From a virus (taxonomy: Duplodnaviria; Caudoviricetes), in the IMG/VR virus record IMGVR_UViG_3300019371_000265, positions 1 through 64,000 of that record: a stretch of 64,000 nt of DNA; one strand, given 5' to 3'. The notes below the pieces were generated by a model. It was not told where the DNA came from and searched no databases. It was given only the letters and a program-made list of their open reading frames with translations. Positions 5,974 through 61,500 of the stretch are shown here, in pieces. Within the stretch, counting starts at the first letter, position 1. Every line of letters starts with the position of its first letter. The translations under genes and the position numbers were made by a program.

Positions 5974-6007
5974 TTCCCAATCAACCTATAATTTGACAGG
6001 GATATTT

Positions 6008-6055
6008 TAACTATATGTTGTGTCTTTTATTATCGCATACCACTATATGTAGTAT
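6008..6055. promoter_or_regulatory. Tandem NrdR boxes upstream of the nrdH-nrdD-nrdG-dut operon
   Basis: taaCTATATgTTGtgt (6008) and ccaCTATATgTAGtat (6040), 32 bp apart; match acaCwAtATaTwGtgt. Confidence 0.8.
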
Positions 6056-6070
6056 TTATTTGCATAAAAA

Positions 6071-6463
6071 TCACTTGATAGTTGCGTTCTCGACTTTTAC
6101 TAATTCTGGGTTTTGATAAATGTTACCAATTACTTCATAGCTTCCATTTACTGAACCATGATAACCATAATATTGTTTTACTCCTACGCTTTTGAATGCG
6201 CCACCTATGTATGTTATCACTCCGACATGCCTATGTGATTTACCTCTGCTCCATTCTTTTCCCTTAATAACGTCACCTTCGTACATTTCATTCTCGTTTC
6301 TATCTTTTAATTCTGTAGATTGCATCAGAACAACATCATTACAAAAATCCAATGGCGTTGCATGCAGATATGGATAACAGGTTCCATCTCCAAAATCTAC
6401 TATCGGAATATTGAGCATTAATTTATTTTCTTTATCCCATGCTCTAAATTTACTATTTCGCAT
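6071..6463 (-). CDS. YopX family protein
   Basis: KFRAWDK, LMQSTELKDRNENEMYEGDVI, EVIGNIYQNPEL. Confidence 0.9.
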   Translation of the reverse strand: MRNSKFRAWDKENKLMLNIPIVDFGDGTCYPYLHATPLDFCNDVVLMQSTELKDRNENEMYEGDVIKGKEWSRGKSHRHVGVITYIGGAFKSVGVKQYYGYHGSVNGSYEVIGNIYQNPELVKVENATIK

Positions 6464-6828
6464 TGTTTCACCTTCTTCATATAATCAAACAAATATATTG
6501 TTTATTTGGTAGAAATCCTAAGAGCGCACTCGACATTACATCTTAATGTAAGAATAAATGTGCTATTATGTTTAATTATTTAATCTCAACACTATAATAA
6601 ATATGTTGCATGTCAAATACTCTAATCGTCGTATCATCTTTAAAGTAACAATCTAAATAATATCTATCTCCTTCTCCTGCTGGCATGTGTTCTAATATTT
6701 TAATTAAACCATCACATCCTACTGTTAGATATCCAGTGCTTAACAACACTTTTATAATTTCTCTCTCCGCCACGTCATATGAACTTGAATACATTCAATA
6801 TCCCCCCTCTCTCCGTCAAAGTGCAGTT

Positions 6829-7302
6829 TTATTTACAATATTTTTTATTTAATGCTCTTATAATTTCATTACAAACGTCGTATGCGCCTTCTGTATAGTC
6901 CACGCTCATTCCACAATCACCATCTAGGCAATCTTCGTCGTATTTAGATCTTATAAATCCAATGATACGTGAGATATCTTCTAAACTAATTTCACTTTTA
7001 TTTGCTTCTTCACTCCCGACGTTATCGTAAGTCTTCTCAAAAATATCCGGTTTACATGGATATAATTCTCCATTCACCCCCTGAATGATGTAATCACCTA
7101 CACTTGCATGATGTACACCCTCTAAAGTCTTGATAAATAACTCACAAGGTGGCTCATTTGGCGATAAACTATCATAATAGATAATTCCATCGTTATATGC
7201 ATTTACCGCCCATTCTGGAACATAATAGTTCCCATTACTTCCCATTAAATCTCCATCATACTGAAATGCCTCAATTACTACCGGTTTCTTTCTAAATTTC
7301 AT
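6829..7302 (-). CDS. Conserved phage protein (PGDYG-like)
   Basis: KFRKKPVVIEA, IKTLEG..GDYIIQGVNGELYPCKPDIFEKTY. Confidence 0.75.
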   Translation of the reverse strand: MKFRKKPVVIEAFQYDGDLMGSNGNYYVPEWAVNAYNDGIIYYDSLSPNEPPCELFIKTLEGVHHASVGDYIIQGVNGELYPCKPDIFEKTYDNVGSEEANKSEISLEDISRIIGFIRSKYDEDCLDGDCGMSVDYTEGAYDVCNEIIRALNKKYCK

Positions 7303-7314
7303 TTTTACTCTCCT

Positions 7315-7770
7315 TTATTTTCCATAATATTTATCTATGTATAACATTGCTTCTTCCATTGAATCTTCGCCCAATTCAATCCTGTCACAGAAACAATGAA
7401 CCCACGGGTGAATAATCTTCTTTAATTTTTCTACTTCGTCTTCTGCCACATCATTTCGCTCCAGAAATCCGATAATTGGCTTTCTCCATAAATAAGCCCA
7501 CGCCATTTCAACAATGCTACCTACCGACAATCTGATGTTGTTCAAGTTCACAAGAACTACTTTTGACTTCTTAACTTTCCGCAAACAAAACATAAGAATT
7601 TCAAGATCAGACTTATGAAGACACTCGCTGTAATTATAATAATCGTTTGGATTAACAGCTCTAAAGCGCTTAGAACAAGCTTCAAACCACTCTTGACAAT
7701 TCCTACGCCACTCATTACTTTGCTCAAAAACAAGGCATTCTGACGCTCCACACAACCACACATCTTTCAA
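7315..7770 (-). CDS. Nucleoside 2-deoxyribosyltransferase-like protein
   Basis: VWLCG..WRR..VNP..SVGSIVEMAWA..KPII. Confidence 0.7.
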   Translation of the reverse strand: MKDVWLCGASECLVFEQSNEWRRNCQEWFEACSKRFRAVNPNDYYNYSECLHKSDLEILMFCLRKVKKSKVVLVNLNNIRLSVGSIVEMAWAYLWRKPIIGFLERNDVAEDEVEKLKKIIHPWVHCFCDRIELGEDSMEEAMLYIDKYYGK

Positions 7771-8000
7771 CTACACTCCTCCTTTAAATATCCCAATTAT
7801 GTTCCACACTCTTCATACTCCCATGGATTATAAATAAATCTACTTCATGGTCGTGCGTTTTATCGTAGAGTGCTGCGATTTCGTATCCGTGTTTCTTCTG
7901 TGTGATAACAACCTCATAGATGGTATCCTGAATAAATCCCATGGGATTTGTTTTTCCGATGTACTTAACTAGCATTCTTTCATCAAAGACCATAATCCTC

Positions 8001-8450
8001 CTATTCTTGATACTTAATTGCTTCCAACTGTGTTTCCATATGTTTGATTTCATCGTCTAAATAAAATCTAGCCTTTTTGAGATCTTCAATTGAAGATTCA
8101 AGAACATCTCCCTTTAAATCCTTTTTACCCATTCTACTTATGTATTTAACAACATTGCCCAAGTCAAAACCTAGATCCCATGCACGAATTACTTTAATTG
8201 CTTCATACGGATTGTCTGCTCCGCCATAATGATTTGGGTGTAAAACCATTTCTTTTGATTCAAGTTTTTGGATAATTTCTTTCATATACTTCCCCTCAAT
8301 CCCTCCAACATCATCTTTCTTATCTGGATATTCCGTACATTCATGTTCAATATCTACAATTACAAATGGTTCTTTCACTGCATTGCAGAAGTGTTGTAGT
8401 CTGCCTCCCACCACTCTTGGTTCACGTGATTTACAATCTTTACACTTCAT
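8001..8450 (-). CDS. DUF3310 (SaV-like) protein
   Basis: VLHPNHY, GNVVKYISRMGKK, EDLKKARFYL. Confidence 0.85.
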   Translation of the reverse strand: MKCKDCKSREPRVVGGRLQHFCNAVKEPFVIVDIEHECTEYPDKKDDVGGIEGKYMKEIIQKLESKEMVLHPNHYGGADNPYEAIKVIRAWDLGFDLGNVVKYISRMGKKDLKGDVLESSIEDLKKARFYLDDEIKHMETQLEAIKYQE

Positions 8451-9030
8451 TTTCTCCTCCTAACACCAATTCTTTAAAATTCGGTAATGTTTCTATCCAT
8501 TCGCAAAATTTGCGCCACTCAGGAAGTCGATGCACCTTCCTTTGTTTATATATTGTTTTTAATTGCTGATAGTTTGTAGTGAATCCAGCAGTTAATTCAA
8601 ATCCAGACGGTACATTGTATAAGATTCTTAAATACAAATCTTTAGCAAATTCGTTTCCCTTATCCTCCAATCCGTTATAAACATCAATCATTTCCTGTAC
8701 AACATCAATAATTCTTTCGTCTACATAATCATTGCACTGGTCTTTAAGAGCAAAGTTTGTGATTCGATGCATTGTTGATTGACTTGAAATGAAATCAATA
8801 AAGTGATATCGTTCTAATTCCACAGACATTTTGTTTGAAAACCGCATATCAAACTGAACAATAATCCCTTTTAAGAAGTTGTCGTGCCCTCCACCGATGC
8901 CGCATGAAGCCAAACTTTTAGTTGTATTTGTAATTCCAGACGCACAATTTTCTGCATTTACCGCCATAGGATATTTGCTAACCCTTATTGCATTTTCTAG
9001 TCCGTACACGTTAGTGTTATAAATTTTCAA
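8440..9030 (-). CDS. Divergent ThyX-like protein
   Basis: GHDNFL, ELERYHF..SSQSTMHR, NYQQLKTIYKQRKVHRLPEW. Confidence 0.55.
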   Translation of the reverse strand: MKIYNTNVYGLENAIRVSKYPMAVNAENCASGITNTTKSLASCGIGGGHDNFLKGIIVQFDMRFSNKMSVELERYHFIDFISSQSTMHRITNFALKDQCNDYVDERIIDVVQEMIDVYNGLEDKGNEFAKDLYLRILYNVPSGFELTAGFTTNYQQLKTIYKQRKVHRLPEWRKFCEWIETLPNFKELVLGGENEV

Positions 9031-9042
9031 AAAGTTCCTCCT

Positions 9043-9291
9043 TTAATTGTTTACAATATAATTTTTGATAACTTCTAAAAACTTTGCAATTTCCTCTTTA
9101 CTATCTGAGTGAATCTCAAGTGCTACAGGTTTACTCAGATCATATGAAAGAAGTCCCAACATACTCTTTGCATCACAAACATGCCTGTCGACTTTAACAT
9201 CTACATCTGATTCAACATTCTTATTTAATTCACTCACTACGTTCTGAGTGTCTTCTACGCTCGTAATCTTCACTACATATTTTGTTTCCAA
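9043..9291 (-). CDS. HPr-family protein lacking His15
   Basis: DAKSMLGLLS Ser46-type motif; 82 aa. Confidence 0.75.
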   Translation of the reverse strand: METKYVVKITSVEDTQNVVSELNKNVESDVDVKVDRHVCDAKSMLGLLSYDLSKPVALEIHSDSKEEIAKFLEVIKNYIVNN

Positions 9292-9302
9292 ATAATATCC
9301 TC

Positions 9303-11258
9303 CTATAAATATTCTGCAATACTTTCTAAGAACTCATCTTCGCTCATAATTGGAATGTTGAGTTCTTTAGCTTTCTTATTCTTAGAACTATTTGATTCTG
9401 TATCATTATTGATGAGAGTGGTGGTAACCTTACTCACGCTCCCGGCTACTTTCGCACCAAGAGATTCTAACTTTTCTGTTAATTCTTTTCTGGAAATTTT
9501 ATATAGACTGCCTGTAATTACGTAGGTCTTGTTTGCTAATGGTGCGCCAACACCTGTTTTTGTTTCAGTTTTAAAACTCATCATGTCTGCGAGTTCTTTT
9601 ATCCATAGGTAATTATGCCTGATGAAGTTATTCATATTATCACACATTGTATTCCCAAAATCGTTCAATCGTGTCCAATCGAAATTGTTAATCCATTCGC
9701 TGTACATTTTGTTGAAGTTACCATTGTGGTACTTTGAAATTGTCTTACACGCTGTCTTTCCAACCATAGGAATTGACAATGCATAAAGAAATCTACTCAG
9801 TTCAGTGTCTTTACTATGCTCAATCTCAGCTAATAGTTTTTTAACTGATTTCTCGCCAAGTCCTTCCAGGCTGACTATTTCATCATAGTATTCTTTCAGA
9901 GTGTAAATATCGTAGAAATTCTCAATGTATACAACGGACATAATTTTCTCCAATGTAGCTTCAGATAGTCCATCAATATTCATCGCGTCTCTGGATACAA
10001 AGTGAGTTAATCTGGCAATTAGCTTTGCTTTACAGTATGGATTGGTACAATGTAACGTTTTACTATCGTTATCTTTATGTATTTCCGTTGGTTCTCCGCA
10101 GCAAGGACATTTATCTGGAATTGTAAATGTATTGGAACGAGTAATGTCATCTCTAATCTGCGGAATGATTTCATTAGCTTTGTATACCGTTACTATATCT
10201 CCAATTCCCAATTGTAAATCTTCTATAATGCTGATATTATGTAACGATGCCCTACCAACTTCTGTTCCACATAAATCTACCGGATCAAATATCGCTATTG
10301 GAGTAATTACGCCAGTTTTCCCAACCTGCCATTCGATATCGGTAAGAATCGTTTCTTCTTCGTCCTCAAGGAACTTAAATGCGATAGAATGTCTCGGGTG
10401 ATGGGAAGTCAAACCAAGCGATTCTCCGTATCTAATATCTTCATACGTAAATACGATCCCATCAATAGGTAAACCGTTATCTTCCGCATACTGTTTTAAA
10501 CTGTAAATGGAATTTGTAATTTCTTCTTTTGTGGCTCCACTTCTAATTTTTCTCATTGGAACTACATCGAACCCAAATTCAGAAAGTACCTTCAGTCTTT
10601 CATTAAAACTATTACCATCAACTCCAGACACGGACTTCCAAGGAATAAATCTCATGTGTCGTTGTGCTGCTAAATTACTATCAAGCTGCCTGATAGATCC
10701 ACTCGCCAAATTTCTTGGATTCTTATACTTTTTATCATCTGGTAATTTAGAATTGATTTTCTCGAAATCTGGTTTAGTAATAATTACTTCGCCATCTACA
10801 ATCAAGTTGTCAATCGGTATTTTCGTTGGTACGTTTCCAATAGATTTTACATTGTGAGTGACGATTTCTCCAACTTCTCCATTACCACGGGTTTCTCCTG
10901 TGTCCAGTTCTCCATTTACATAATTAATCGAACAGGTTAATCCGTCCATTTTCAGCATCGCTACTCCTGGACTTCCATTTAAAAATGCTACAATATCATC
11001 TATCGATTTTGTCTTTCCAAGTGATAGCATTGGGTGATTGTGCTTTACCTTTTCAAGTTTGCCATTTACCTCGTAGCCGACTGTATGTGTTGGTGAATTC
11101 GTCATTACGATTCCAGTTTCGTTTTCCAAATTTTCTAGTTCGTTAAACATTGAATCATATTTTTCGTTTGTTACTGGCGAAGCGTTTTCATTATAGTATC
11201 CGTCTCGATACATATTTAGCTTATCAACGAGTTCCTTAATTCTGTTTATCTTATCCAT
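9303..11258 (-). CDS. ligA: NAD-dependent DNA ligase
   Basis: PMLSL, KMDG, TRGNG, RNLASGS, Zn finger, HhH repeats, BRCT (GSVSKVT). Confidence 0.97.
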   Translation of the reverse strand: MDKINRIKELVDKLNMYRDGYYNENASPVTNEKYDSMFNELENLENETGIVMTNSPTHTVGYEVNGKLEKVKHNHPMLSLGKTKSIDDIVAFLNGSPGVAMLKMDGLTCSINYVNGELDTGETRGNGEVGEIVTHNVKSIGNVPTKIPIDNLIVDGEVIITKPDFEKINSKLPDDKKYKNPRNLASGSIRQLDSNLAAQRHMRFIPWKSVSGVDGNSFNERLKVLSEFGFDVVPMRKIRSGATKEEITNSIYSLKQYAEDNGLPIDGIVFTYEDIRYGESLGLTSHHPRHSIAFKFLEDEEETILTDIEWQVGKTGVITPIAIFDPVDLCGTEVGRASLHNISIIEDLQLGIGDIVTVYKANEIIPQIRDDITRSNTFTIPDKCPCCGEPTEIHKDNDSKTLHCTNPYCKAKLIARLTHFVSRDAMNIDGLSEATLEKIMSVVYIENFYDIYTLKEYYDEIVSLEGLGEKSVKKLLAEIEHSKDTELSRFLYALSIPMVGKTACKTISKYHNGNFNKMYSEWINNFDWTRLNDFGNTMCDNMNNFIRHNYLWIKELADMMSFKTETKTGVGAPLANKTYVITGSLYKISRKELTEKLESLGAKVAGSVSKVTTTLINNDTESNSSKNKKAKELNIPIMSEDEFLESIAEYL

Positions 11259-11274
11259 TGTTCTCCTTTACTCA

Positions 11275-11344
11275 ATTTTATTTCCATCTATTAAGATTAT
11301 ATACCGCACATTCATGAAAGTCAACCATTTTATTTCAATCTATT
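11275..11344 (-). promoter_or_regulatory. sigmaA promoter of ligA flanked by two copies of repeat B
   Basis: TTGACT (11324-11319)-17-TATAAT (11301-11296); AATAGATKGAAATAAAAT at 11327-11344 and 11275-11292. Confidence 0.8.
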
Positions 11345-11883
11345 AAAACTATTTTTTAATGCCCATTCCATCGGCTCTGTGTGGTATTGCAACATAGCAC
11401 CAGTCAGATGACAGTTCTAGTGAATCCATGTCTTTTTCGATAGTATCAATTATGTAGTCTGTCCCGTCAACCCTGATAAATAGATGTTTGTCGTCCTGTA
11501 ATTTATTAATTGTTCTTTTAAATTCGTTAGTTAGTCTCAAGTTCTATATTTACTCCTTTAATTATGTAATTTTTATTTCGTCACTTCAGCTACGTGCTTT
11601 ATTGTAGTACTAAGTAACCGATGCATAAATTGAAACGTGATAAAATTATTCCCTTGTGTTATATTATAAATTACGGTACATCTTGGAATGGATGGATAAG
11701 CACATTCCATCACAGATGTTGGATTCTTTAAATCTTCTATGTATTTTTCAAAGCAAGAATACTCAATATTCCTTTCTTGAAGGTTCTCGGGATTAGTTAT
11801 CTCCCATTGTTTCTCATGGATTTTTACCATATTATTATTCAATTTTTCCTTCCCAGTCAAAGACTGATTTCACCGTAAATTTT

Positions 11884-11930
11884 AGTCTATATCTTGTGGT
11901 TTTATTTTATAATGCCACTATATATAGTGT
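11884..11930. promoter_or_regulatory. Tandem NrdR boxes
   Basis: agtCTATATcTTGtgg (11884) and ccaCTATATATAGtgt (11915), 31 bp apart. Confidence 0.75.
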
Positions 11931-13707
11931 GTCAAAATACTATTTTCTCAACATTTTGTACTTAGCACGATAAAAATGGGTCTTCTGGCAACGGTAATGG
12001 ATTAATTGATTGCTTGCCATGTGCATTACAGCCAATCTCAGCTAAATCTTCATTATTAATTTCTACGTCGCAAGCGTGGTCTACCATCAAATAACCCCTA
12101 TGTAGTAATCGCTGCTTATCTACCAGGCAGTTATTATCGAACCAATAAAAATAGCCGTCCTCAATTAATGGCGTTGTATCAATTCTGCCATTATGAAATT
12201 CTTTTCCAATCCTCTTTTTTACTTCATCGATGGATTCTGCATAAAAAGAAGTGGTTGTATCTTTAATCCATCTTTTGGCATCAAGAAAATCCAATTCTTC
12301 AAATTCACTCTCATAATCTTCCACGGACATATCTTTACCAGATTTTCTTCTAATATATTCCTGCTCTCTATTTGCAAGAATTTCTACTATAAAAGTAACT
12401 CTATACTTGTAGTTATTATTTTCTTTCATTTAGTTCCTCCTGCGTCTAAATATTTAAACCATATAGTGCCATCTCCGTACTCAATTTCTTCTACTAATAC
12501 ATCACACCACAAGCCACCGTCTTCTACTATTAAGTGTAGTTTGTCTTCAGCCTTAATGTGATTGTCATGCAGTTTATTATAGAGCGTGTCGTCGTAAGTA
12601 ATGCAGTTCATTATATTCAATAGATCATATTCGTCTTCATCTATTGCAATTTCTATCATTTTTACCTCCAAATTCTTCATCAAACTCTACTTCTACAGAG
12701 TTATTTCAATAGTGTCGTTTGCATTATTTTTCTCCAATTTTATAGAGTAACCATAATACATATGCGATAAATGTACCTATGCAACCCATAATAAAATATG
12801 GTAAAATTGCAACGAACGCTAATATACATGTTAATTTACCAAAGACATTTTTATTTTCTATTGTATCTAATATAAATATTCCTGGAATCGTAATCGTTGT
12901 TGGACTATCTTGCGATAATGCAAAGTCCATGGTTGGAAGAATTAAACAAACTACCGACGGACAGTAAAACATCATTAACAATGCTATAAGTACCACTATA
13001 TTCTCCTTTCATTTTCAATCCGGTCAATCAGCCATTTTAATGTATTCCTTCAAGACCTTTTTGTATATTTTCAAGAATCTTCCGTTCTTCTTCGATTCTT
13101 TCACGAATCTCTTGATTCATTTTTTGTAAACCTCCTCTGCTTTCATATCCCGGTTCAAACACCAACTTATCAATGTATGCTAATAGTTTTTCTTTATCGC
13201 TTTGTGTTAAAATCTTGTCTTCTGCTATTATCAATCCCTTTAAAGTGTAATATAAACTCAACATAATATATCTTCTCCTTTCCCTGTCAAATTGAAGTTC
13301 TATTGTAAATTAAATTATCCTCTCTTTCGGCAATGGAGCTATTAACGCAACCCTATTAGTTACCTCTTCTGTTCCATAACAATGTGGATTTGCAACATAG
13401 AATTTACCGCCATGCCACCACGCTTTTTCAAATCCATAAGATAATACCCAATCTGCATAATCCAATCCCCCTTGGTCACATTCATTAAAATTCTTTGGCT
13501 TTAAAACAACCAAGCACCAACCAAATTCTCTCAATGCATCATATCTGTCATTATAATCAAACCAATCTATTATTGTCTGACGTTTTGACCTACATTTCTT
13601 ATCTCTGTCCATTCTACTCCTCTCAATAAAACCAGTGTTCGATGGCAATTTTGTATTTACGTATAGCGGATATATATTTACATAGCCACTATACGCGATA
13701 TATTAAC

Positions 13708-14478
13708 TTAGGATAGCAATGTGGAAACAAAGGTTTTTAAAGGTTCTTTCAAACTTAAATTTCCATTCATCCACTCAAGATAATCTTTATGATCTTTTGC
13801 TATTTCGGTGATTAAACTGCCTTTGTATTTTCCAAATGGCAATAAATATTCTTCAATGTTTGGAAGTTCGACTTTTACAGACCCAAGTATCCCTTTTAAT
13901 TCTTCTGGGATAATCATATCAATGTCGTTTCGAGAACTAAGGATATCGCACTCATGAATAAAAAACTCCATTTCATTTCTGGGTTCAGGCATTATCTCTT
14001 TTCCTGCCCTACTCTTATTCCATTCTCCGGAGTGAGCTTCACACATACAAGCAATTAGTTCTTTATATTCTTCGGAAATATCGTGTTCTGGATTTGTATC
14101 CCTCACCCATTCTGCGGCGAGCATTGGGTGATCCTGAACCGTATAGCTAGATCCATTCCAACCACATTTGACTGCGTCGTGAAATGTCGGAACACAACGC
14201 ATACAATCTCTGATTTCTGGGGTGTTAAATTTTTCTTTATTTCCTTTTAATCTCAATCGGTGATTAAGAATTGAATCAAACATATACTCGTGATATATTT
14301 GACCATACGTTTCACACTGCGTTTTATTATGATATTTGCCACTTGTCGAACTGGGCATGGTAAATATGTAATCTGGCATTTCAGCAACCATATCCATATA
14401 ATAGTCAATAAATTCTTTTGTTTCGAAGTTTGCGGTTAAAGGTTTGAATATATTTTGTTTTTCTTCTCTGGTCATCAA
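13708..14478 (-). CDS. HD-domain (YhaM-like) nuclease/phosphohydrolase with C-terminal PFGKYKG domain
   Basis: PSSTSGKYH, FHDAVK, HPMLA, AHSG, HECD; LPFGKYKG..YLEW. Confidence 0.75.
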   Translation of the reverse strand: MMTREEKQNIFKPLTANFETKEFIDYYMDMVAEMPDYIFTMPSSTSGKYHNKTQCETYGQIYHEYMFDSILNHRLRLKGNKEKFNTPEIRDCMRCVPTFHDAVKCGWNGSSYTVQDHPMLAAEWVRDTNPEHDISEEYKELIACMCEAHSGEWNKSRAGKEIMPEPRNEMEFFIHECDILSSRNDIDMIIPEELKGILGSVKVELPNIEEYLLPFGKYKGSLITEIAKDHKDYLEWMNGNLSLKEPLKTFVSTLLS

Positions 14479-14704
14479 AAATTCTCCTTATTTTTTAATA
14501 GTTCTGCTATTTCAATATTTTGAGGCATTCTCTCTAAAATGTTGCAAGCGGAGTTGATATAGTTGTCGTCTGGGTAACAAATATCATATTTTCTTTTTAA
14601 ATATATAAGTTCCTCTATTAAGGCACCAATAGTCATAAAATCCTCCATATTATTAGACGGCGAATGAAATGGCAATCCACAAATACATTCTTTAGTTACC
14701 TTCA

Positions 14705-15238
14705 TTATTTCACCAAGTTCCTTAGATAGTATTGAAATGTTCCATATATAAAAATTGGACTATATGAATTGTCTGGCATAAAAACAATTTCTAAATCATA
14801 TTTATGATTGAAGCTATGTAGGCTCCCTAAATAGCTTTTTGAATTATATTGCGTGTTATAATTTCCATTTACTATATCTAAATAGTTGCAATTTTCAATC
14901 ATCAAATACTTCTTCTTTGCTTTAGCTGTTGCAAATTCTTCCTCGAACCTTGTTCTTGTTTGAGCAAAATTCCCAGACAATTCTTCTGCGGAGTTCTTTT
15001 TCTCAATAAAAATCTCATCATAAAAATATTTACTTCTGGATATTCCTAATTCCTTGTTTTCTGGGAGTTTAAAGCTATAATCTCCACATGGTAAAGCAAT
15101 TTTTTCATATGGTATTTTGTGTTTATCAAAGTAACTTAATATGTTCTCGTTTTTCTTCTCTCTGGTATCCACTAAAATCACAATCGACTTCAGTAACTCG
15201 GTTTGTTCTGCGTCCGTATATTTATGTCTCTCTAAAAT
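14705..15238 (-). CDS. ERCC4-domain nuclease (probable ATT start at 15238)
   Basis: VDTRE, GDYS, IEKK, RFEEE; in-frame extension to ATT 6 nt after AAGGTG. Confidence 0.85.
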   Translation of the reverse strand: MLERHKYTDAEQTELLKSIVILVDTREKKNENILSYFDKHKIPYEKIALPCGDYSFKLPENKELGISRSKYFYDEIFIEKKNSAEELSGNFAQTRTRFEEEFATAKAKKKYLMIENCNYLDIVNGNYNTQYNSKSYLGSLHSFNHKYDLEIVFMPDNSYSPIFIYGTFQYYLRNLVK

Positions 15239-15250
15239 TTATTTCACCTT

Positions 15251-18200
15251 CTAACATACTTTTATATAGTCTTTAATCCACCACTCAAACACATCTGGTA
15301 CTATTTGCCACTCGTCGTTGATTTTCTGTTTCTTCGGCTGTTTTTTTACGTTGTTTATGTATATTACGTCCCCATCTTCTAGTGGTATTTCGGCAAAACT
15401 GGTTTTTAAATTTTTGTCTTTTTTGTTGATTGTTTTGTGAATTTTCATTTCAGTTATTTTGCCTTTGCCTACACTATAAGCATTAAACTTTGGAGAGTAT
15501 GAGGTGTTCAAATCTGTTATTACCACATATCTCCAATCAAGAGTTTCATCTACATAATCAACATACCCTAAAACTTCATATTGGAATTTGACAAGAGGTA
15601 TAACCCCAAACTCTTCATTACTTACTTTTGAAGCCAACTCTTTAACTAATCCAATCCAATCTAAACTACTGTATTGCGTTTCGCTTATTTTTCCAGAAGC
15701 CAATTTATCTGTAGCAAATTTTTCAACAATCTCGGTGCTTATATCTAAACTTGGAATATCAGCTTTTTTAATTGTCTTCCTACCGTCGCCACTACTTCCT
15801 TTCCAGTAATCAACAATATTAACAATTGCCAACAGTTTCTTGATTGATCCAAATTTTTTAAAATAACCAATTTTAACTAAGTCCTTAAATACCGATGCCG
15901 TAACATTTGTTCCTTTAATAGACAAGTAAATATCTACAAAATCATCAGTTCCTTTATTATATATATCCATAATTGCCTGAACAGCCTTTATTCCTATGCC
16001 TTTAACACTTGATAGGCTTGGATATATGATTTTGCTTGCGTCATCAACCGTGAATTTTGTATTATCTTTTCCATACTCGTAAGTTCCCATCGTATAACCA
16101 AACATGGTCATTGCTTCTTTTATTAGAGCCGCTACTTTATTCTTATCACCTTTGTCTTGGTAATGATTTAATGTCACTTCATAAAACTTTGATAAATAAT
16201 GAGCCTTCACCCACGCTTCATATAGAGAGTCATTAGCCATTGCCAGAGCATGTGGAGCATTGAAGCTATACCTCGCACTGTCTTTAATAACCTTATATAC
16301 TGGCTCAAAGTTATCAAGGTTTCCGATATTCTTTTGCCAATGAGTTCTTAAGTTCGATTCTACTTTCGCTAATGCTTCCCCTTTAAGTTTCTTTTTGCTG
16401 ATCTTTTTAATGGTATCGTAACTGTCTTTCATGGGAATTCCAAGATAAGAGAATATTTTCATTACTGCTTCCTGATATAACATATAGTGAAAACATTCCT
16501 CCAGCAAGGAATCAATTGCCTTTTCTCCGTTTGTATACTCAATACGATTTAAGAATCCATCAATTAGAGATTTGAAACCCGGGCGGATTCCAGCTATAAA
16601 CGCCGCAAGTTCTTTAATGTTACGAGGCTTAAACTTCATCGCTTTTTTCGTCGTAGATGGTTTTTCACATTGGTTTAAGCAGCACGTTGCTCCCATCTCA
16701 TATAATTTCCATGTAAGATCATCGTTTTGTACCATTTTTCTCAATTCTGATACGGTTGGTACTTTTTTATTTAAACTCCCATAAAGCTTATGAATAATAG
16801 CTACGACATCTACTATTAAGAAATCATCTTTTACGTATCCATATGAATCGAGCATACCTCCTTCTATGTTTGCTACAACTGTTGATTTTCCAGTACTTTC
16901 AGAATGGCATCGAATAAGTCCAATTTCATAACGGATATCTCCATACCCTACAACATTAGGGTCATTTACATTTCCATTAAACAGAAAGAATCCACAGGCA
17001 TGGACTTTGGCTTGCTCAATAATGCCTTGATACGGTTTACTGTCATAAAAAATCTTTAGATGTTCTTTGTTCGTTATGTATTCTTCAATGTGAATATCTT
17101 TTTTATCTTCTTCGTCATCTACCTGCTTTAATGCCTCATTGTATTGGTCAATCGATGACGTGATCTCATTGGCAACACTTGGTTCTATGCCCTTAATATC
17201 AGCATAAAGTTTAAATCCAGATTTTTCACCAAGTTTACCTACTGCCAATAATGGATAACAACCATGTTCTCCAAATAATTCTTTAGCTGCTAGGACAAAC
17301 GGCTCCTGGCTAGAAACGTTAAAATCTATATCTGGGCATTGATGAGACGACAGAATTCTGTCTTTTGTAATAAATCTTTCTGGATATATTGGCACTTCTG
17401 CCTCAAACCTATCCATTGTTGTGAACCCAAGCAGTTTGCTGGAATAATAAGAACTCGCACTTCCTCTTGACGTAGTAGTAAGTTGACCATCATATTTTTT
17501 TATAGCAAGATCGACTAAAGCGCCATTGTCTAAGAAGTAATCAACTGTTCCACTTGCATCGATTTCTCCATACTCGTAATTCATGCCATCTTTTCTATCT
17601 TCTGTCTTATGTTCAGTGTCTTCTTTATCGAAATGATCATCAAGAATACTCTTTAATAATTCAGACCTTTTCGAGTAGTCGTATTTTTGATACTCTGGCA
17701 AGATTGGAATTTTGAAATCAGTATTATAAGTAATATCTTCGCATCCACTAATAAAAACATGAGTATTCATCATTGCATAAATGATTTCTTCAGACGGCAA
17801 AATTTCTTGCCTAATTAGTCTTTTATATGCCTCCAAACCATCAGGAAAATCCATATACCAACCCTCTTCATCGTCATAATGTAATCCTTTCCTCAAAAGA
17901 AGATTTTCTCTTTTTATTCTGTCTTCATCGTTAATGTAATGAGTATCTAGCCCAACAATGGTTTGGATTCCGTATTTTTGAGACATATCAAATATTCTTT
18001 TATTTAATTCCTTTTGCTTTACTGTATTATGAGTTTGATATTCTAAGAAAAAATTATCTCCAAAATATTCCCATATTTTCAACCAAATATCTTCTGCGTC
18101 TTCATATTTCCACCCAGCAACACAAGCAGATGTAATATAAACATCATCTTTATCTAGTTGGAATAGCATATTTAAATCAATTCTAGGTTTGTAATAGAAT

Positions 18201-18712
18201 CCGTCTGTATGAGCGCAAGAAATGATATAATTGAGTTTTCTCATTGCCTGATATGTTTTCGCTACTATTACCATGTGGCAATTTGAATTATCTCTCTTCT
18301 CTCTTGTTTGGATCTTGCCTTTTTTATCTTCGTACTCCTCATATGTCACTTGGTGAATGTCTTTTACCCAATAAACTTCTGCCGAATACCTAAACCGGAT
18401 ATCTTTGCTTAATCCGAGTTTTTTTCTTACTTCTTCATTTTGCGTTTTTTTACAAACATCATATACGTAAAGCCACTCTCCTGGATATCCATGTTCTCCT
18501 GAAAAATAACACTGACACCCATATGAATCAGACAATTTAACGAAATCATTTATATCTGTAGTAGAATCAATTTGAATAAGATCTGACCATGTAGTGTGTT
18601 TATGATAATTCTCTATAAGCAAGTTCTTTTTGTTGATCCACTCTTCGGTAGAATATGGAAACTTAAATTTCAGTCGGGATTCTGCTTTTTTTGCATCTTC
18701 CAATAAAGACAA
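15251..18712 (-). CDS. dnaE: DNA polymerase III alpha subunit (family C)
   Basis: PHP domain (HKHT, EHG, FYYKPRID, DTHY), RGSASS, PDIDF, HACG, YSFNAPHA. Confidence 0.95.
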   Translation of the reverse strand: MSLLEDAKKAESRLKFKFPYSTEEWINKKNLLIENYHKHTTWSDLIQIDSTTDINDFVKLSDSYGCQCYFSGEHGYPGEWLYVYDVCKKTQNEEVRKKLGLSKDIRFRYSAEVYWVKDIHQVTYEEYEDKKGKIQTREKRDNSNCHMVIVAKTYQAMRKLNYIISCAHTDGFYYKPRIDLNMLFQLDKDDVYITSACVAGWKYEDAEDIWLKIWEYFGDNFFLEYQTHNTVKQKELNKRIFDMSQKYGIQTIVGLDTHYINDEDRIKRENLLLRKGLHYDDEEGWYMDFPDGLEAYKRLIRQEILPSEEIIYAMMNTHVFISGCEDITYNTDFKIPILPEYQKYDYSKRSELLKSILDDHFDKEDTEHKTEDRKDGMNYEYGEIDASGTVDYFLDNGALVDLAIKKYDGQLTTTSRGSASSYYSSKLLGFTTMDRFEAEVPIYPERFITKDRILSSHQCPDIDFNVSSQEPFVLAAKELFGEHGCYPLLAVGKLGEKSGFKLYADIKGIEPSVANEITSSIDQYNEALKQVDDEEDKKDIHIEEYITNKEHLKIFYDSKPYQGIIEQAKVHACGFFLFNGNVNDPNVVGYGDIRYEIGLIRCHSESTGKSTVVANIEGGMLDSYGYVKDDFLIVDVVAIIHKLYGSLNKKVPTVSELRKMVQNDDLTWKLYEMGATCCLNQCEKPSTTKKAMKFKPRNIKELAAFIAGIRPGFKSLIDGFLNRIEYTNGEKAIDSLLEECFHYMLYQEAVMKIFSYLGIPMKDSYDTIKKISKKKLKGEALAKVESNLRTHWQKNIGNLDNFEPVYKVIKDSARYSFNAPHALAMANDSLYEAWVKAHYLSKFYEVTLNHYQDKGDKNKVAALIKEAMTMFGYTMGTYEYGKDNTKFTVDDASKIIYPSLSSVKGIGIKAVQAIMDIYNKGTDDFVDIYLSIKGTNVTASVFKDLVKIGYFKKFGSIKKLLAIVNIVDYWKGSSGDGRKTIKKADIPSLDISTEIVEKFATDKLASGKISETQYSSLDWIGLVKELASKVSNEEFGVIPLVKFQYEVLGYVDYVDETLDWRYVVITDLNTSYSPKFNAYSVGKGKITEMKIHKTINKKDKNLKTSFAEIPLEDGDVIYINNVKKQPKKQKINDEWQIVPDVFEWWIKDYIKVC

Positions 18713-19525
18713 TTAATCGCCTCCCATCAGTTTGTAATCACAAGAATTTCTAAATCCACAAAGGTTATTACAATAGAAATAGTCCATTTTTGGTAGAAAG
18801 TTCTCTTCTTCATAAATCGTATTTATCAATTCAATCGCCCATTTTTTTGCTTGCACAAATTCTTCTTCTATGAAAGGTAATTCCAGCCACTTCTTTTCTT
18901 TGAAATAATTCCACTTTAACGCTGTAGGATATTTGCCGTATTCTTTAAAAACTTGTTCTCCATATAAATATAGCTGTTTTTTATAGTTGTCATAGTCATC
19001 TTGTTTTTTCTTCAGTACTCTACCCTTTTTGCCAATTGGATATTCACTTGATTTATGATCTATAACTATGATATCTCCGGTAGTCTTATCTTTGATTAAT
19101 AAATCAATATAGCCAATAAATGACCTGCCTTCTATTTCAAACTCGCACTTCTTTTCCACCCCTAAGACTTCATATTTATCTAACCAATCAAAATCAAGAG
19201 TTGCAAAATATTCTAATCCTAAATAAAAATATTTCTCTCTTGTTGGATCTGCAACGTCCCAACATTCAATTTCTTGGTCATAGTTGGATTTATAGTATTC
19301 AATCGAATCTTCAATGGTCATCTGTTTCTTTAAAATCTTTTCTAAAATCCCATGGCAAAAACTCCCAAATGCCGCATAAAAATTCTGCTCATTTTCATAG
19401 ACTCTCTTGCCATTTTCGTCTTTTAATAAATAATTTAAATACCACTCGTATTTACAACCTTCAAAAGAATGGCACCTACTAAAAGAAAAAATCATTTTAT
19501 CAATCTGGCTTTTATATTCTCCCAA
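18713..19525 (-). CDS. PD-(D/E)XK nuclease, AddB/Cas4-like with Fe-S cysteines
   Basis: SFSR..C, GYIDL, IDHKS, QLYLY, C-terminal CxxxCxxxxxC. Confidence 0.85.
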   Translation of the reverse strand: MGEYKSQIDKMIFSFSRCHSFEGCKYEWYLNYLLKDENGKRVYENEQNFYAAFGSFCHGILEKILKKQMTIEDSIEYYKSNYDQEIECWDVADPTREKYFYLGLEYFATLDFDWLDKYEVLGVEKKCEFEIEGRSFIGYIDLLIKDKTTGDIIVIDHKSSEYPIGKKGRVLKKKQDDYDNYKKQLYLYGEQVFKEYGKYPTALKWNYFKEKKWLELPFIEEEFVQAKKWAIELINTIYEEENFLPKMDYFYCNNLCGFRNSCDYKLMGGD

Positions 19526-19537
19526 ACATTCACCTTC

Positions 19538-20551
19538 TTATTTTATTTTCCTTTTGTTTTCATATAACCTGTTCCATATATCAATACCTAAATCTATCGG
19601 AGAATTTTTAGCTTCTTTTCCCCCTAGTAAATTATCATTGTCTTCAATTACATAAACATTTAAGAATTTCTTTAACATATTAATATTCTTTTTGACTTCT
19701 TTTTCTTGGTAGGAAACATCCGAATCATAACAAAACACTACATTTTTTATGTAATCACAACCAATAATCCATTTAATTTGTTCTGGTGTTAGAGTATGTT
19801 TTTCGGCAGACGCAGAATCCTTAACTTCATTCCCAAACAATTTCATAACACTTTTTAAACTTTCAAAAATTTTCAATTCTCCGGTTTCTTTTATGTATGG
19901 CAAAGTAATATTTGCACCTTGGAAATAATCAACGGTTCCAACGGGATAATAATTTATATATTTACATATTCCGAGTTTTTTGAAATCTTTATGTAACGTT
20001 CTTGCTTTAATGTTTATCAAGTTTCCAGACATATCATAGACGGGATACACAATTTTGTTAGATCTATCATCTAATCTAATTTCAAATAAGTCGATTTCTT
20101 CTTGTCGTATTCCTTCGTCTAGCCAAAGATCCACTCTTCCTTTTCTATATTTTTCAAACTCGCTTCTCGCCAGTATTACATGATCTGCGCCGCCATCGTT
20201 GCCTGATTTAATCTGTTTTATTTTTCTGTTTAATTTTACCGTTTGTGATTGGCACATAGTTTTTAAATCAATTTTTGCGAGATTTGAAGCTTTTTGTACG
20301 GCTTCGTCATACGAGAGTTTTTCATGCGCAATCAAAAACTGAATTATTCCACCGCCAGAACCACAACCAAAACAATAAAATTTATTTTTTCCAGGAGTAA
20401 CAGAGAATGATGGTGTCTGTTCAGAGTGAAGAGGGCATCTACCAAAATAATCTTTTCCTTTTGGTTTTAAATCAATTGACTTCTTTATATACTCCAATAG
20501 GTCAACATTATCATTAATTTCTTGAAGCATTTCTTCATCATACTTTACCAA
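19538..20551 (-). CDS. DNA primase (CHC2 zinc finger plus Toprim)
   Basis: CPLHSEQTPSF..FYCFGC; FES, CYDSD. Confidence 0.9.
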   Translation of the reverse strand: MVKYDEEMLQEINDNVDLLEYIKKSIDLKPKGKDYFGRCPLHSEQTPSFSVTPGKNKFYCFGCGSGGGIIQFLIAHEKLSYDEAVQKASNLAKIDLKTMCQSQTVKLNRKIKQIKSGNDGGADHVILARSEFEKYRKGRVDLWLDEGIRQEEIDLFEIRLDDRSNKIVYPVYDMSGNLINIKARTLHKDFKKLGICKYINYYPVGTVDYFQGANITLPYIKETGELKIFESLKSVMKLFGNEVKDSASAEKHTLTPEQIKWIIGCDYIKNVVFCYDSDVSYQEKEVKKNINMLKKFLNVYVIEDNDNLLGGKEAKNSPIDLGIDIWNRLYENKRKIK

Positions 20552-20567
20552 TCATTCTCACTCCTTA

Positions 20568-22402: not shown

Positions 22403-22412
22403 GCTTCACCTC

Positions 22413-47581: not shown

Positions 47582-47597
47582 GACTGCTCCTTTCTGC

Positions 47598-47615
47598 GTC
47601 AAATGTCACATTGAC
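47598..47615. repeat. Junction palindrome (repeat A) immediately upstream of the recombinase RBS
   Basis: GTCAA atgtcaca TTGAC. Confidence 0.85.
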
Positions 47616-47621
47616 TGACTG

Positions 47622-58013: not shown

Positions 58014-58180
58014 TCTTACAATCTCCTTTTAAATTTTATTTGTCAATGGCATTATATATGGGTTTTATCACCATATCTGCACGCATACCATCAAGAGCAT
58101 TTCAGCCCATCACGTCAACCGTTTCGGTGTGTCAACCTTTTATGTGATTTTCAGTGTGCAATTTTGTAAGGGATTTCCGA

Positions 58181-58286
58181 TTGACTTAATTCAGAGAATT
58201 GATATAATAGAAGTAAGTCAACGTGTTAAACGTTTGGCGGCGTGGATAGCGGTTTCTGTTCTTGGTCGGATGGAACCGCTATTTTT
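58181..58286 (+). ncRNA. Candidate antisense sRNA (promoter plus terminator) in the antirepressor leader
   Basis: TTGACT (58181)-16-TATAAT (58203) with TG extension; terminator ATAGCGGTTTC..GGAACCGCTAT-TTTT 58246-58286. Confidence 0.55.
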
Positions 58287-58470
58287 AATCCTTATCCTGC
58301 TGAGATATTTTGTAAGAAATTTCTTTCTTAATTTGAATGTCTCCACTTGAAAAACCTTCCATCAATGTTTCCAATGCTTCATTGATTTTAAAGCCTTGTT
58401 CCTTACAAGCGGTTTTAAATTCTTCTTGTATTGTTTCTTCAACAGGAGTTGCAAAAGTTTTTCTCGCCAT
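58285..58470 (-). CDS. Ribbon-helix-helix (Arc/CopG-like) protein
   Basis: MARKTFATPVEETIQEEFKTACKEQGFKINEALETLM; promoter TTGACA-17-TATAAT at 58523-58495. Confidence 0.7.
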   Translation of the reverse strand: MARKTFATPVEETIQEEFKTACKEQGFKINEALETLMEGFSSGDIQIKKEISYKISQQDKD

Positions 58471-58572
58471 TGCTATATCTCCTTTACATTTACTATTATA
58501 TATCATATATACTAATTTGTCAATTAGCTTTTTGCATTTTTTATAATTATTTTTCTATGTAAAATATTGATT

Positions 58573-61500
58573 TTACTTGCTTAATTCTAATATATTTCTT
58601 TGTTGCAAAAAGTACTGTTTTTCTTCTTCTGATATCTTATAAGATCCACTGTATCCGTCTGTTATTACATCGTAATATTGAATAGGATCAAATAGATTTG
58701 TATTAGTATTCCTACTTTGTTTTTGTTTAATGTAAAAGTCGCTTGTTGCAACAAAATAATCAAGTGCATACTTCACAGTAACACCTTCTATAAACCATTT
58801 TGAGTGTACAAAACGTTTATCTAAAAAACACTTTTTCATTGTCATTTTACCTCCCATTTCTCGAAAACATAACCGTTATCTTCCAAAAATTTTTCTGCAT
58901 CGGATTTTTTATTGAACGATTTGCTAAATGTAAATGGTTTATCAGATGCTAGATAGCCTACGACTTTTTCGTTCTCATTTAAAAAATATACACTATACGA
59001 AACATTGTACAGTGCTTTGTGAGTTATGTTTGATTTACCAGAATATACCTTCCCTTTTCTTGTTGCTATTATCCTTCCAAATATCACTTTGAAAACCCTC
59101 CATTAAAAATACGGTGAAATTGATAGATTAATTATATGCTCATAAAATATAACGGTCAAAGAATAGTTCTACTGCCATTATCCAAAAGTGTAATTTTTCT
59201 CAAAATCAATTGTAAAATTTAATGTAATATCATTTCTTTCAATTTGGTGTTCTTTTACTTCACTGATAAAAGTTATTTCCGTTTCAGGATTCATACTGTT
59301 TTTAAAAATCTCCATAGCTTCCTGTTTTGTGATTGCTTTAATATATAGCCAACGGTTTCTATCATTGTATATATAGTAAACCCTATATATATTCATATTT
59401 AGTCCTCCATAACTTTAATTAATTTATAGGTGCAATTAATAAATGTGAAACCATTATCAAAATATTTTATGCTATTTTCGTTCTGTTCTGATATGTCTAA
59501 GGTTGCCGTTTGTGTTCCGTCAAAGAATACAATATTATGTGTATTTACTTTGTGTAACACTCTTGAAAACGTTCCGTCATTCAGGCTGTTTGTGCGGGTT
59601 AATTCAAATATTGCCTTACCTTGTAACTGTCTTAACTGCTTTTTTAATTCTTTAAAATTAGTTGCATTTATGAATACCTTCATTGTTTCTCCCCCTCCGT
59701 CAAATAATCGATTGATAGTGTTCTATAATGCTAAATCAGTCTACAGCCTGTGACAGCCATAGACCGAAAATCTAAGCTACATTCTCACATTGACTTCTTA
59801 TTACTTTTTTCCCATTACCGTTTGACTCCATTCTTACTGGGAGAATGCAACAAATCCCAATTGATGTTTGAATGAAAATAGGACTTGTTTCTTTTCCGGA
59901 GTAATAGATTTCAGCTTCTTCCCCATCATTGATAATACTAAAAGCCTGTTCTAAAATTCCAAACTTAAAATATGCGTTTTCAAAATACCACACATATGAA
60001 AAATCATTTCCAGATCCGACTTCCTTCTTATTGAATTTATAGCCTTGGCTTTTTGCTTCTGCTAAAACTGTATTGAGATTTATCATTTTATTTTTATATC
60101 CAGAATAAGAAAGAAGTTTGTCAACTTTGTAATAGTTGTCATTCGAATTATCATACTCGGCAATTTCCCCGATAGATTCTTTTGTTAAGGCGATAGAATA
60201 TCCATCAATAAATGAGTAATAATCCTCGCCTTGATAATTTATCTTACAAGGTTTCTGTAAAGATTCGTTGGTATTTTCTTGAAACTTGAAATATTTCTTC
60301 ATGGCTGCATAGCGCTTTTTTGCATCAGGAATAGTTTTTATTCCATCTTGAAATATTTCATCCTGAAGCATGGTTTTTAGTTCTTCCGTTTTACCACTGT
60401 TTAGCATTTCTAATATTTTTGTGTTCTGCATTTATATATCCTCCATAATTTAATTTGTTTTACTAAAATAGGCTTATATCCTGTGACGGATACAAGCCCG
60501 TAAAATTCGGTTTTTATCTGATATTCACCGATACCCATCTTTTTGCAGAAGCTAATGATTTGCAAGTTTTTACAATTATTATTGAACTATCATTTTCTCC
60601 TTTGTCATATTCTATTTCAAATCCATCATTCGATTCTGATATCCAGACGTATTTACCATATCTTTCACTATTAATTTCTTTTACCCAACTAGTAGGTGTT
60701 CCCCATTCAGTATCACAATCGTGAACTATTTCCCATGTTTTTTTCATTCTGATTCCTCCTCATAAAATGGATATTTTAAGCCACGTTTTTTATCATGTTG
60801 GAATATTCCGTATTATCCCATGTAAACGTACAATTTTTATACACGTCTTCCATGTCGATTTTCATTGCATCAAAACTTGTATAGCGTATGCATTTTCTAA
60901 TACCATAAGCAGTTATATAATCCATTGTACCGCCCTGAACGCTGTATAACTCTTTACTATAAATATAACCAAAGCAGTCACGATCCACTTTAAAGCTTGC
61001 GTAATGTGGCTTTCCGTTAACTGTTCCAATTTTTATTAATTTTTCCATGTTTTAAATCCTCCTTACCTTTCCCAATAATATCCAGATCCGTCCAATAAAG
61101 TAATTTGTACACCCTCTGTGTCTGCCTGAATATCTGCAACCTGATTCATGTCAACCATGTCTCTGTTACCAAATCTACCAAATAAAAAAGCACTTATAAC
61201 AAGTGCGGTTGTAATGATCGCATATTTGATTTTTCTCATTGCCATATCCTCCGTTTAAAAGTTAAGAATCGTACCGCTTCTGTGTAACTCCTGCAAACCC
61301 GTATAACCCGTTTCTGCGTTCTCAAATACCAATGTTTTAGAACTGATTTTAAAGTTTGGCGATATGCTGTTTAATACTTTACTACAAGTCTTCGCTGACA
61401 ACGTAGGCATGTTGCGGAAGTAGAAACTTGACTCGTATGTATCCCTTGCGTTGTACGTGCCGATTAACTGCTTCTTACCTATTGTGTAGATATTTACCTT

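Follow-up and report, generated by a model that had tools for sequence, protein, structure and literature searches.

The window and the genomes compared

The DNA analysed here, termed the window, comprises the first 64 kb of the 126,319-bp provirus record IMGVR_UViG_3300019371_000265, and its genes run on the minus strand throughout. Homologues of SPbeta YonO (37% identical), terminase, portal protein, tape-measure protein and dUTPase identify the phage, as judged from its genome, as a distant SPbeta relative, i.e., an SPbeta-like prophage; the closest relatives found for its DnaE polymerase are in large Firmicute phages. The subject of this study is a short dyad element, the junction box, which recurs at the gene junctions of the window, together with the gene modules that appear to have been swapped between related phages at its copies.

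The comparison set consisted of this phage, the genome G001, the contigs L097, L098/L099, L100 and L101, and the contigs of G006. G001, a relative from IMG/VR of 120 kb, is colinear with this phage and 35% alignable at the DNA level; 68 of 210 genes are common to the two, and their DnaE proteins are merely 23% identical. The contigs L097-L101 were found independently of G001, via homologues of a 311-amino-acid (aa) recombinase-like protein that is described below. Shared genes have 75-92% DNA identity. Single-protein scans of genome and metagenome collections gave no further close relatives, and profile scans yielded homologues of at most 45% identity, none of them with these boxes; in the genome parts examined of G002-G005, whose YonO proteins are 68-78% identical, such boxes were not found either.

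Sequence, number and placement of the junction boxes

Read on the minus (coding) strand, the box spans 24 nt with the consensus RTMAAW-N6-WTTKAY-RGNGAA: two inverted arms, with 6-8 bp conserved per arm, enclose an asymmetric 6-bp centre, and a weaker C/G pair lies two positions outside the arms. A search with a 24-nt weight matrix at a threshold of at least 12 bits returned 57 minus-strand matches in the 126-kb genome, compared to 3.05 (maximum 9) in order-2 Markov simulations of the background; at 18 bits or more, 39 matches stand against 0.1 expected. The direction of the 57 matches is uniform relative to transcription, and the 26 plus-strand matches are mostly the same palindromes read in reverse, plus a few late-region sites. 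Nearly all boxes are intergenic and lie between the stop codon of one gene and the Shine-Dalgarno sequence of the next. The start codon typically follows 5-23 nt downstream and lies within 30 nt of the 3' end in 39 of 55 boxes; in 37 of 55, positions 2-4 of the box spell a stop triplet, which terminates a frame open for 40 codons or more in 19 cases. Within one genome, the six centre positions carry no information, and no centre is duplicated within any genome, the latter being a weak test, as only ~0.5 duplicates are expected.

The main array (24016-60779, minus strand) holds 47 boxes of at least 12 bits among 97 early and accessory genes between 24 and 61 kb, which leaves one to five genes per slot, most commonly one. 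The low coordinates of these boxes are 24016, 25113, 26762, 27050, 27851, 28078, 28283, 29514, 31288, 31831, 33423, 33913, 34270, 35615, 36854, 37081, 38070, 39006, 39537, 40744, 41165, 41861, 42272, 43105, 43341, 43564, 44198, 47592, 48170, 48441, 49614, 49826, 50952, 51737, 52312, 53336, 53580, 53807, 54076, 54280, 55264, 56849, 58553, 59149, 59693, 60494 and 60756. A second block on the same strand (5974-13643), downstream of the replication core, carries boxes at 5974, 6809, 11850, 12673, 13280 and 13620, all six of which have a same-centre partner in G001, in the same order. The replication core itself (13643-24016) has zero weight-matrix matches, and the late, plus-strand half of the genome has only a handful of boxes; the YonO polymerase gene has one immediately before it (genome 68272-68295). 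Minus-strand matches also occur inside genes: a box at 502-525, also kept in G001, is located within the coding region of a cell-wall hydrolase gene (1-666), and a weak match inside a gene starts at 9181.

A first-pass annotation of the window, made from the sequence alone, had listed 55 sites at gene junctions as a degenerate palindrome. The family is real: 49 of these sites pass the weight matrix, whereas six (13023, 26014, 51940, 55653, 55901 and 56153) are weak, with leave-one-out scores below 4 bits in four and near 8 in two. Window matches beyond those listed start at 502, 9181, 13620, 48441, 50952 and 54076. The exact form proposed as best, GTCAA-N8-TTGAC, is confined to three copies (26768, 39012 and 47598; 0.09 expected). 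The counts given above bear out what the annotation had said of oriented copies, of a replication core free of boxes and of stop codons inside the site, for which it had named 17 cases and 19 were found; a weight matrix, as it had proposed, gave the enrichment described. A perfect copy, 47598-47615, indeed abuts a recombinase-like gene, 11 nt upstream of the integrase-like gene at 46646-47581. The box family and its placement are established.

A double-stranded site rather than an RNA element or a promoter

The two arms have mirror-image consensus sequences and vary independently of each other: positions 3/16 and 1/18 are unassociated (Fisher p = 1), and the commonest pair at positions 3 and 16 is an A.G mismatch, which 28 of the 57 boxes carry at this third pair. 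When six boxes were folded as RNA, their stability was no better than that of shuffled sequences (z -1.4 to +0.7), and a search of Rfam gave no family matching the boxes, the sole match being a tRNA at 44296-44367. Because the arms vary independently and no stable fold is seen, the box is, by these comparative sequence data, a double-stranded dyad-type site, presumably for a protein, and not a hairpin. A small hairpin in the polycistronic early transcript, acting in processing, stability or translational control, would agree with the palindromic shape of the best copies and with a position that is always after the stop codon, before the Shine-Dalgarno sequence and on the strand that is transcribed. 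The missing covariation, the frequent A.G mismatch, folding no better than shuffled and the lack of an Rfam family largely refute such an RNA or single-strand element, which was rejected and to which hardly any probability can be assigned.

The motif TTGAC was also considered as the -35 element of sigma-A promoters and was rejected for nearly all copies, because the start codon, 5-23 nt away, is too near and no -10 element follows. The exception is the box at 59149, the right arm of which, TTGACC, forms the -35 of a near-consensus promoter with a 17-bp spacer and TATAAT (window 59131-59172). Alternatively, a phage-specific transcription machinery, either the YonO polymerase or a phage sigma factor, could use the boxes as promoters or start sites; their size is like that of T7-type promoters, and a conserved, oriented element of ~24 nt with a G-rich 3' end, directly before short leaders, would suit this role. 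However, hardly any boxes occur in the late arm, which is the YonO-transcribed region in SPbeta, and the YonO gene is itself preceded by one; a dyad with a variable centre is unlike a promoter, and the address-like properties of the centres described below would be left unaccounted for. This explanation is considered very unlikely.

Near the divergent switch region, boxes go with promoters, like the repeated element SPBRE in SPbeta. A perfect TTGACA-17-TATAAT promoter is found ~30 nt downstream of the box at 58553 (window 58495-58576).

Box centres are shared between relatives in fixed order

G001 has 47 boxes, 43 of them in the early arm, and 35 of these 43 share their exact 6-bp centre with a box of this phage, where 0.75 would be expected by chance. 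L098/L099 have 21 of 26 centres in common with this phage, L101 five of seven and L100 four of 11, and 17 centres are common to G001 and L098; across pairings, the chance expectation ranges from 0.1 to 0.75. The order of the shared centres is identical in all comparisons among this phage, G001 and L098 (35/35, 21/21 and 17/17). Given that 81% of the boxes of G001 and of L098 have an exact-centre partner in this phage, centre divergence is capped at ~3.4% per position, as compared to 15-24% for the arms. The perfectly identical stretch that spans a shared centre has a median length of 14 bp. The GTGACA centre exemplifies this behaviour: in this phage it belongs to the box with perfect arms at 47592-47615 (minus strand), 11 nt before the integrase-like gene, and it recurs in G001, L098 and L100 with a different upstream flank in each. 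A single centre, CTCACA, is common to this phage and G006.

In lox, FRT and dif sites, the two recombination partners must agree in their overlap region. A centre that is free within a genome and frozen between genomes is explained only by a need for such a partner match; by this analogy, the centre of the junction box looks like an overlap region. The ordered, slot-specific centres are established comparatively.

Gene turnover between boxes

Most of the genes between the boxes differ from relative to relative, while the boxes remain. Among the slots between consecutive shared centres, 21 of 34, 14 of 20 and 11 of 16 are unrelated by tblastx in the comparisons among this phage, G001 and L098, and slot lengths are often very different. 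In 81 of 98 matched box pairs, neither 60-nt flank is homologous, so that raw alignments display 24-bp islands amid unrelated sequence; the centre ACTATA is found in five different contexts on either side. At the TCCCAA box, the upstream allele of this phage is that of L098, whereas the downstream allele is that of G001, and the GTGACA and GTCTGG boxes have a recombinant pattern of the same kind. Since parental alleles separate at single boxes, the boxes are, on this sequence evidence, crossover points and the borders of swapped gene modules; the unrelated cassettes and the recombinant patterns themselves are established comparatively. In the few instances of one gene lying next to different centres, homology stops exactly at the edge between arm and centre, as seen in four flank-anchored cases. 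For the 3' extension, arm variants tend to go with the adjacent cassette as predicted (0.89 vs 1.70 differences), with too few cases to carry weight.

One exchange may involve the replication machinery. The slot between the boxes TGCTCA (28078) and CACTGG (13620), at 13644-28077 on the minus strand, contains five boxes present only in this phage (24016-27851) and the box-free replication module, in which Pfam identifies DnaE, primase, a DnaB-like helicase, a PD-(D/E)XK nuclease and a Sak protein. It measures 14.4 kb here versus 12.8 kb in G001, with a tblastx coverage of 0.11, so its content has largely no relationship to that of G001, an otherwise close relative, and it looks as if the replication machinery had been swapped relative to G001 as part of this stretch.

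The annotation had interpreted the boxes as integron- or pdif-like, with promoterless cassettes that are excised, captured and shuffled within the genome at any two boxes by a phage recombinase or the host XerC/D. Several features speak for it: a 6-bp centre flanked by inverted arms, overlap of stop codons with the box, a scarcity of promoters in the array, a recombinase-like gene beside a perfect copy and a few cassettes that occupy different slots in different genomes. Tyrosine-recombinase core geometry and the presence of a recombinase-like gene in the array are indeed observed, and comparison with four relatives supports modules that are bounded by boxes, with clear recombinant patterns at single boxes. 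The part that did not survive is excision, capture and shuffling within a genome: slot-specific centres in kept order point to exchange between genomes at matching boxes instead. The alternative that the annotation had itself named, binding sites of a phage protein, retains an appreciable probability. Centres that all differ within a genome and retain a strict order between genomes are the opposite of free shuffling; moreover, there is neither attC-like structure nor covariation nor a stable fold, the boxes have a single orientation, the recombinase gene lies in the middle of the array without an attI- or Pc-like end, and the conserved arms, at 6-8 bp, fall short of the 11 bp of Xer arms. For these reasons, an integron or pdif mechanism is judged improbable.

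The contents of single slots include further elements and enzymes. In L098/L099, the slot TTCGTA-CTCGGA, 2.4 kb compared to 0.6 kb in this phage, carries a TnpB gene (Cas12f1-like_TNB; 14148-15497), an insertion sequence-type element that landed inside the slot. Accessory enzymes encoded in the window are a dUTPase 73% identical to SPbeta YosS (768-1199), an NrdD-like anaerobic ribonucleotide reductase (3010-4425), an NAD-dependent DNA ligase with a BRCT domain (9303-11258) and an RtcB RNA ligase (28312-29505).

The invariant slot and its candidate proteins

The sole slot conserved in all relatives encodes a triad, all on the minus strand in this phage: an integrase-like protein (46646-47581), a PemK/MazF-type toxin (46050-46475) and an MrpR-like protein (44933-45979); the triad is also present in L097-L101, and each of the five array phages has in its invariant slot a tyrosine-recombinase-like gene with conserved motifs of the R/K/HxxR/H/Y kind. 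The GTGACA box forms the upstream edge of this slot, and the box with centre TTCGTA (44198-44221, minus strand) forms the downstream edge of the conserved regulatory slot. The toxin gene, which is situated between the two recombinase-fold genes, has its own sigma-A-like promoter at 46627-46599.

The 311-aa protein is a divergent tyrosine-recombinase-like protein with a match to Pfam PF00589 at 28 bits (cut-off 27.1). Its motifs RRAGDTR, EEKTDK, HSTRK and H-x8-Y228 are kept in six full-length homologues. The N-terminal domain is small and beta-rich, a core-binding domain is not recognisable, and a sequence search of the PDB returned zero relatives. Its recombinase-like gene inside the array is plausibly active.

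The 348-aa product of 44933-45979, for which the annotation had suggested a role as a second recombinase, turned out by model comparison to have the MrpR/YopR/SroF fold. Its AlphaFold model, with a predicted local distance difference test (pLDDT) score of 80, has as its top PDB matches phi3T SroF (9rgl, 9rd5), SPbeta MrpR (8a0a) and YopR (8bpz). The protein was placed by fold search alone, a Pfam scan being without match; its positional counterparts in L097 and G006 match Pfam MrpR_N_CB at 1e-15. Neither recombinase-fold protein shows homology to SPbeta YopR or YopP by BLAST or hhalign. The modelled fold makes the protein a candidate MrpR/SroF-fold repressor, a candidate for the master repressor as well as for the box binder, and suggests that the phage has the integrase-fold, putatively non-catalytic master repressor of an SPbeta-type phage. 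A single-strand annealing protein of the Sak (Rad52-like) type is encoded outside the slot, at 22843-23463 on the minus strand (Pfam PF06378, 2.5e-29).

Other elements accompany these genes. The tRNA gene at window 44296-44367 (minus strand), within the conserved regulatory slot, has short megablast matches in other phages that are annotated as tRNA-Gln. In a second repeated element, AAACARGACTT(TGA) comes after a short hairpin whose loop reads TTGGCG; copies are found at window 34837-34900, 44521-44590 and 46550-46600 (minus strand) and at genome 68240-68295 (plus strand). The copies at 46550 and 44521 lie just 3' of strong sigma-A-like promoters (46627-46599 and 44872-44844, respectively), and the copy before YonO overlaps the box with centre CAAGAC. 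This hairpin may be a leader-RNA regulatory element.

Dyad 'arrays' were also encountered on L139 and L126, two phage-like contigs from metagenomes with genes for remote homologues of the 311-aa protein, and were rejected as box arrays: they are CRISPR arrays (L139 18632-19510; L126 15990-16325) with a period of ~61-66 bp, the repeats of which contain CTTCTC-N5-GAGAAG and CATCT-N5-AGATG.

Box variants in more distant relatives

In L097, a relative of lower GC content that encodes a clear MrpR_N_CB protein, the sequence AATAAAAATAATA is found directly before many Shine-Dalgarno sequences. It resembles the A-tract core of the SroF operator of phi3T and occupies the same junction position. In G006, the boxes have the form (stop)ATMAAA-N6-TTTGAT and lie directly against GGAGG; three successive genes encode a YopP-like integrase of canonical type, a protein of 426 aa and an MrpR_N_CB protein. 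Arrays of junction boxes, with box sequences that differ, may be a general feature of these phages.

Address-coded exchange or a silencing array

The reading that we favour, with a confidence approaching but not reaching that of an even call, is that the boxes are lox/dif-like core sites, the centres of which serve as addresses for ordered cassette exchange between related phages, and which are probably repressor boxes in addition. About every second gene junction of the early arm carries one box, each with a centre of its own. The sequence of events would be as follows: When two related genomes meet, either in a co-infection or when a phage encounters a resident prophage, strand exchange would take place solely between boxes of identical centre. 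Cassettes of one to five genes could then be swapped slot by slot, leaving the gene order unscrambled and causing no deletion within a genome. The likeliest catalyst would be the tyrosine-recombinase-fold protein of the invariant slot, i.e., the 311-aa protein here and the canonical YopP-like integrase in G006. The neighbouring MrpR/SroF-like repressor would probably bind the same boxes too; this use would account for their closeness to the Shine-Dalgarno sequences and for the copy before YonO. The binding of a protein to the boxes, its identity, the site-specific exchange and the timing of this exchange are what we infer here from sequence comparison. In its strongest form, the reading amounts to natural addressed recombination, with ~50 mutually incompatible core sites common to an SPbeta-like population and read by a phage tyrosine recombinase, a proposal that we make somewhat more tentatively.

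Several observations weigh against this reading. Box type does not track the 311-aa protein across relatives: L097 has a copy of it that is 51% identical, yet A-tract boxes, and G006 (contigs L110-L113) has ~30 boxes of like design, ATMAAA-N6-TTTGAT, with a different, canonical integrase. As a Pfam integrase, the 311-aa protein is marginal (28 bits); the assignment of its catalytic residues was made by eye, and its AlphaFold model (pLDDT 56) is too poor for a structure search. Some cassettes adjoin different centres in different genomes, and in G001 and L098 a 76-aa open reading frame is found between the GTGACA box and the Shine-Dalgarno sequence of the integrase without a second box. The phage also encodes the enzymes for a short-homology route, i.e., the Sak annealing protein, the PD-(D/E)XK nuclease and the NAD ligase. 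The Shine-Dalgarno proximity, single orientation, 24-bp size and YonO copy of the boxes would fit a purely regulatory role of the SPBRE or stoperator kind. Finally, the array genomes compared are five only, three of which are partial.

The main alternative is a stoperator-like silencing array, in which the boxes are operators of the MrpR/SroF-fold protein (44933-45979) and crossover by short homology is a by-product. In the lysogen, the repressor would clamp each junction, halt read-through of the host RNA polymerase along the early arm and shut off the YonO gene. As the boxes are the sole conserved sequence between unrelated genes, crossovers would fall there via Sak annealing or via template switching at protein-stalled forks. 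The MrpR/SroF family binds repeated 24-26-bp boxes in SPbeta-like phages, and the 348-aa protein has this fold. MrpR of SPbeta binds a repeated element at ~10 intergenic places, including one upstream of yonP-yonO (PMC10516654), and the SroF monomer binds a 26-bp box, of which it reads 24 bp (bioRxiv 10.1101/2025.11.27.690993). SPBRE, extracted from NC_001884, has inverted arms ATACA/TGTAT around 7 bp, and some copies are directly before a Shine-Dalgarno sequence. The boxes of this phage measure 24 bp, all point the same way, precede start codons by 5-23 nt and are found on both sides of the regulatory slot; the late arm lacks them save for a few, one of them before YonO, a distribution like that of mycobacteriophage stoperators (PMC3029335, PMC9283540). 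The A-tract boxes of L097, which resemble the SroF operator, sit at the same junction position, and the phage has genes for a Sak protein, a PD-(D/E)XK nuclease and a ligase.

What a silencing array leaves unexplained is the centre, which is free of information within a genome and best conserved between genomes while the arms drift. In experiments, Rad52-type relaxed recombination dropped below 1e-8 when the longest identical run was 11 bp (PMC3945230); the shared identity here, ~14 bp, is below the experimental range for recombination of the Rad52 type (PMC3945230), and even so exchange has reached two thirds of the slots. A clear dyad symmetry is unexpected for a monomeric binder of the SroF type, and most boxes lie outside sigma-A promoters, unlike SPBRE. 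The silencing array is considered a serious possibility, albeit a rather doubtful one.

Both readings bear on an old question, namely how phages swap accessory genes rapidly without losing genome order; the customary answers are illegitimate recombination on the one hand and short homologies at module borders on the other. In this array, the borders of exchange are explicit: 24-bp boxes kept amid replaced surroundings, with position-tagged centres common to relatives. If address-coded exchange is true, fast gene turnover with kept genome order would represent a natural counterpart of heterospecific-lox cassette exchange, and the orphan YopP/SroD-type recombinases of SPbeta-like phages would gain a function; a recombinase that reads the centres would be a new evolutionary device for modular exchange and a source of orthogonal recombination sites for engineering. 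If the boxes are instead repressor sites that recombine by short homology, the MrpR/SroF system of SPbeta would extend to a stoperator-like array, in which regulatory punctuation channels mosaicism.

Comparison with known systems

Tyrosine-recombinase core sites have inverted arms around an asymmetric overlap of 6-8 bp, and the boxes have this geometry; an overlap that is identical between partners combined with tolerant arms is likewise found, as a comparative signature. In heterospecific lox and FRT sites, inverted arms flank a centre that has to be identical in both partners; sites that differ in their centres do not react with each other, which allows for ordered cassette replacement. The loxPsym sites of SCRaMbLE are engineered and placed just after stop codons. 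The junction boxes resemble these sites in the inverted arms, in a centre that matches between relatives and in the position after the stop codon; the lox, FRT and loxPsym designs differ in being man-made and served by Cre or Flp, whereas recombination at the boxes is deduced from comparison only. We know of no natural phage array of addressed lox-like sites.

Integron attC and pdif sites resemble the boxes in that they delimit small promoterless cassettes with recombinase-type borders, and stop codons are near or inside the site. However, attC sites are folded single strands, imperfect hairpins conserved in structure, each of which travels with its cassette, whereas the boxes are conserved in sequence, double-stranded and fixed in order. 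Integrons capture cassettes in any order and have the integrase gene, attI and Pc at one end of the array, in contrast to the recombinase-like gene in the middle of the array here, and the 28-bp pdif sites have 11-bp XerC/XerD arms and alternate in orientation, compared to arms of 6-8 bp and one orientation.

The closest described systems are the SPBRE/MrpR system, the stoperators and the PeSL elements of T4-type phages, for none of which a literature search retrieved a report of centres that are tied to position and kept from genome to genome. Cluster A mycobacteriophages, which are temperate, have stoperators (L5 gp71, Bxb1 gp69) that also occur in dozens of copies, in short intergenic spaces and in one orientation. 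They are asymmetric 13-bp sites, bound by a helix-turn-helix repressor that blocks elongation, and found in both genome arms, as opposed to dyad arms with a centre and recombinase-fold candidates; to our knowledge, no variable, position-specific centre has been reported for stoperators. The PeSLs are repeated intergenic motifs at the borders of open reading frames that are inserted, deleted or replaced between relatives, and have been proposed to mediate modular shuffling (PMC2839356, PMC4122927). They are mutually similar composites of early promoter and stem-loop that recombine by homology, whereas the boxes have no promoter or hairpin, ~14 bp of identity and unique centres.

SPBRE and the SroF boxes belong to the same phage type, with homologues of YonO, terminase and portal protein and a putative repressor of the same fold, which is encoded in a syntenic triad of integrase, a third gene and repressor. 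In both cases, the intergenic repeat is of similar size, with inverted arms, a 6-7-bp centre and a copy upstream of the phage RNA polymerase operon (PMC10516654; bioRxiv 10.1101/2025.11.27.690993). The sequences of SPBRE (AAATACAAAAAATATGTATA) and the junction box are unrelated, and ~10 copies compare with ~55. SPBRE is located in early sigma-A promoters, whereas the boxes mostly lie at stop/Shine-Dalgarno junctions without a -35/-10 pair. Unlike those of SPBRE, the centres of the boxes are variable, slot-specific and kept between genomes, and the boxes coincide with mosaic breakpoints.

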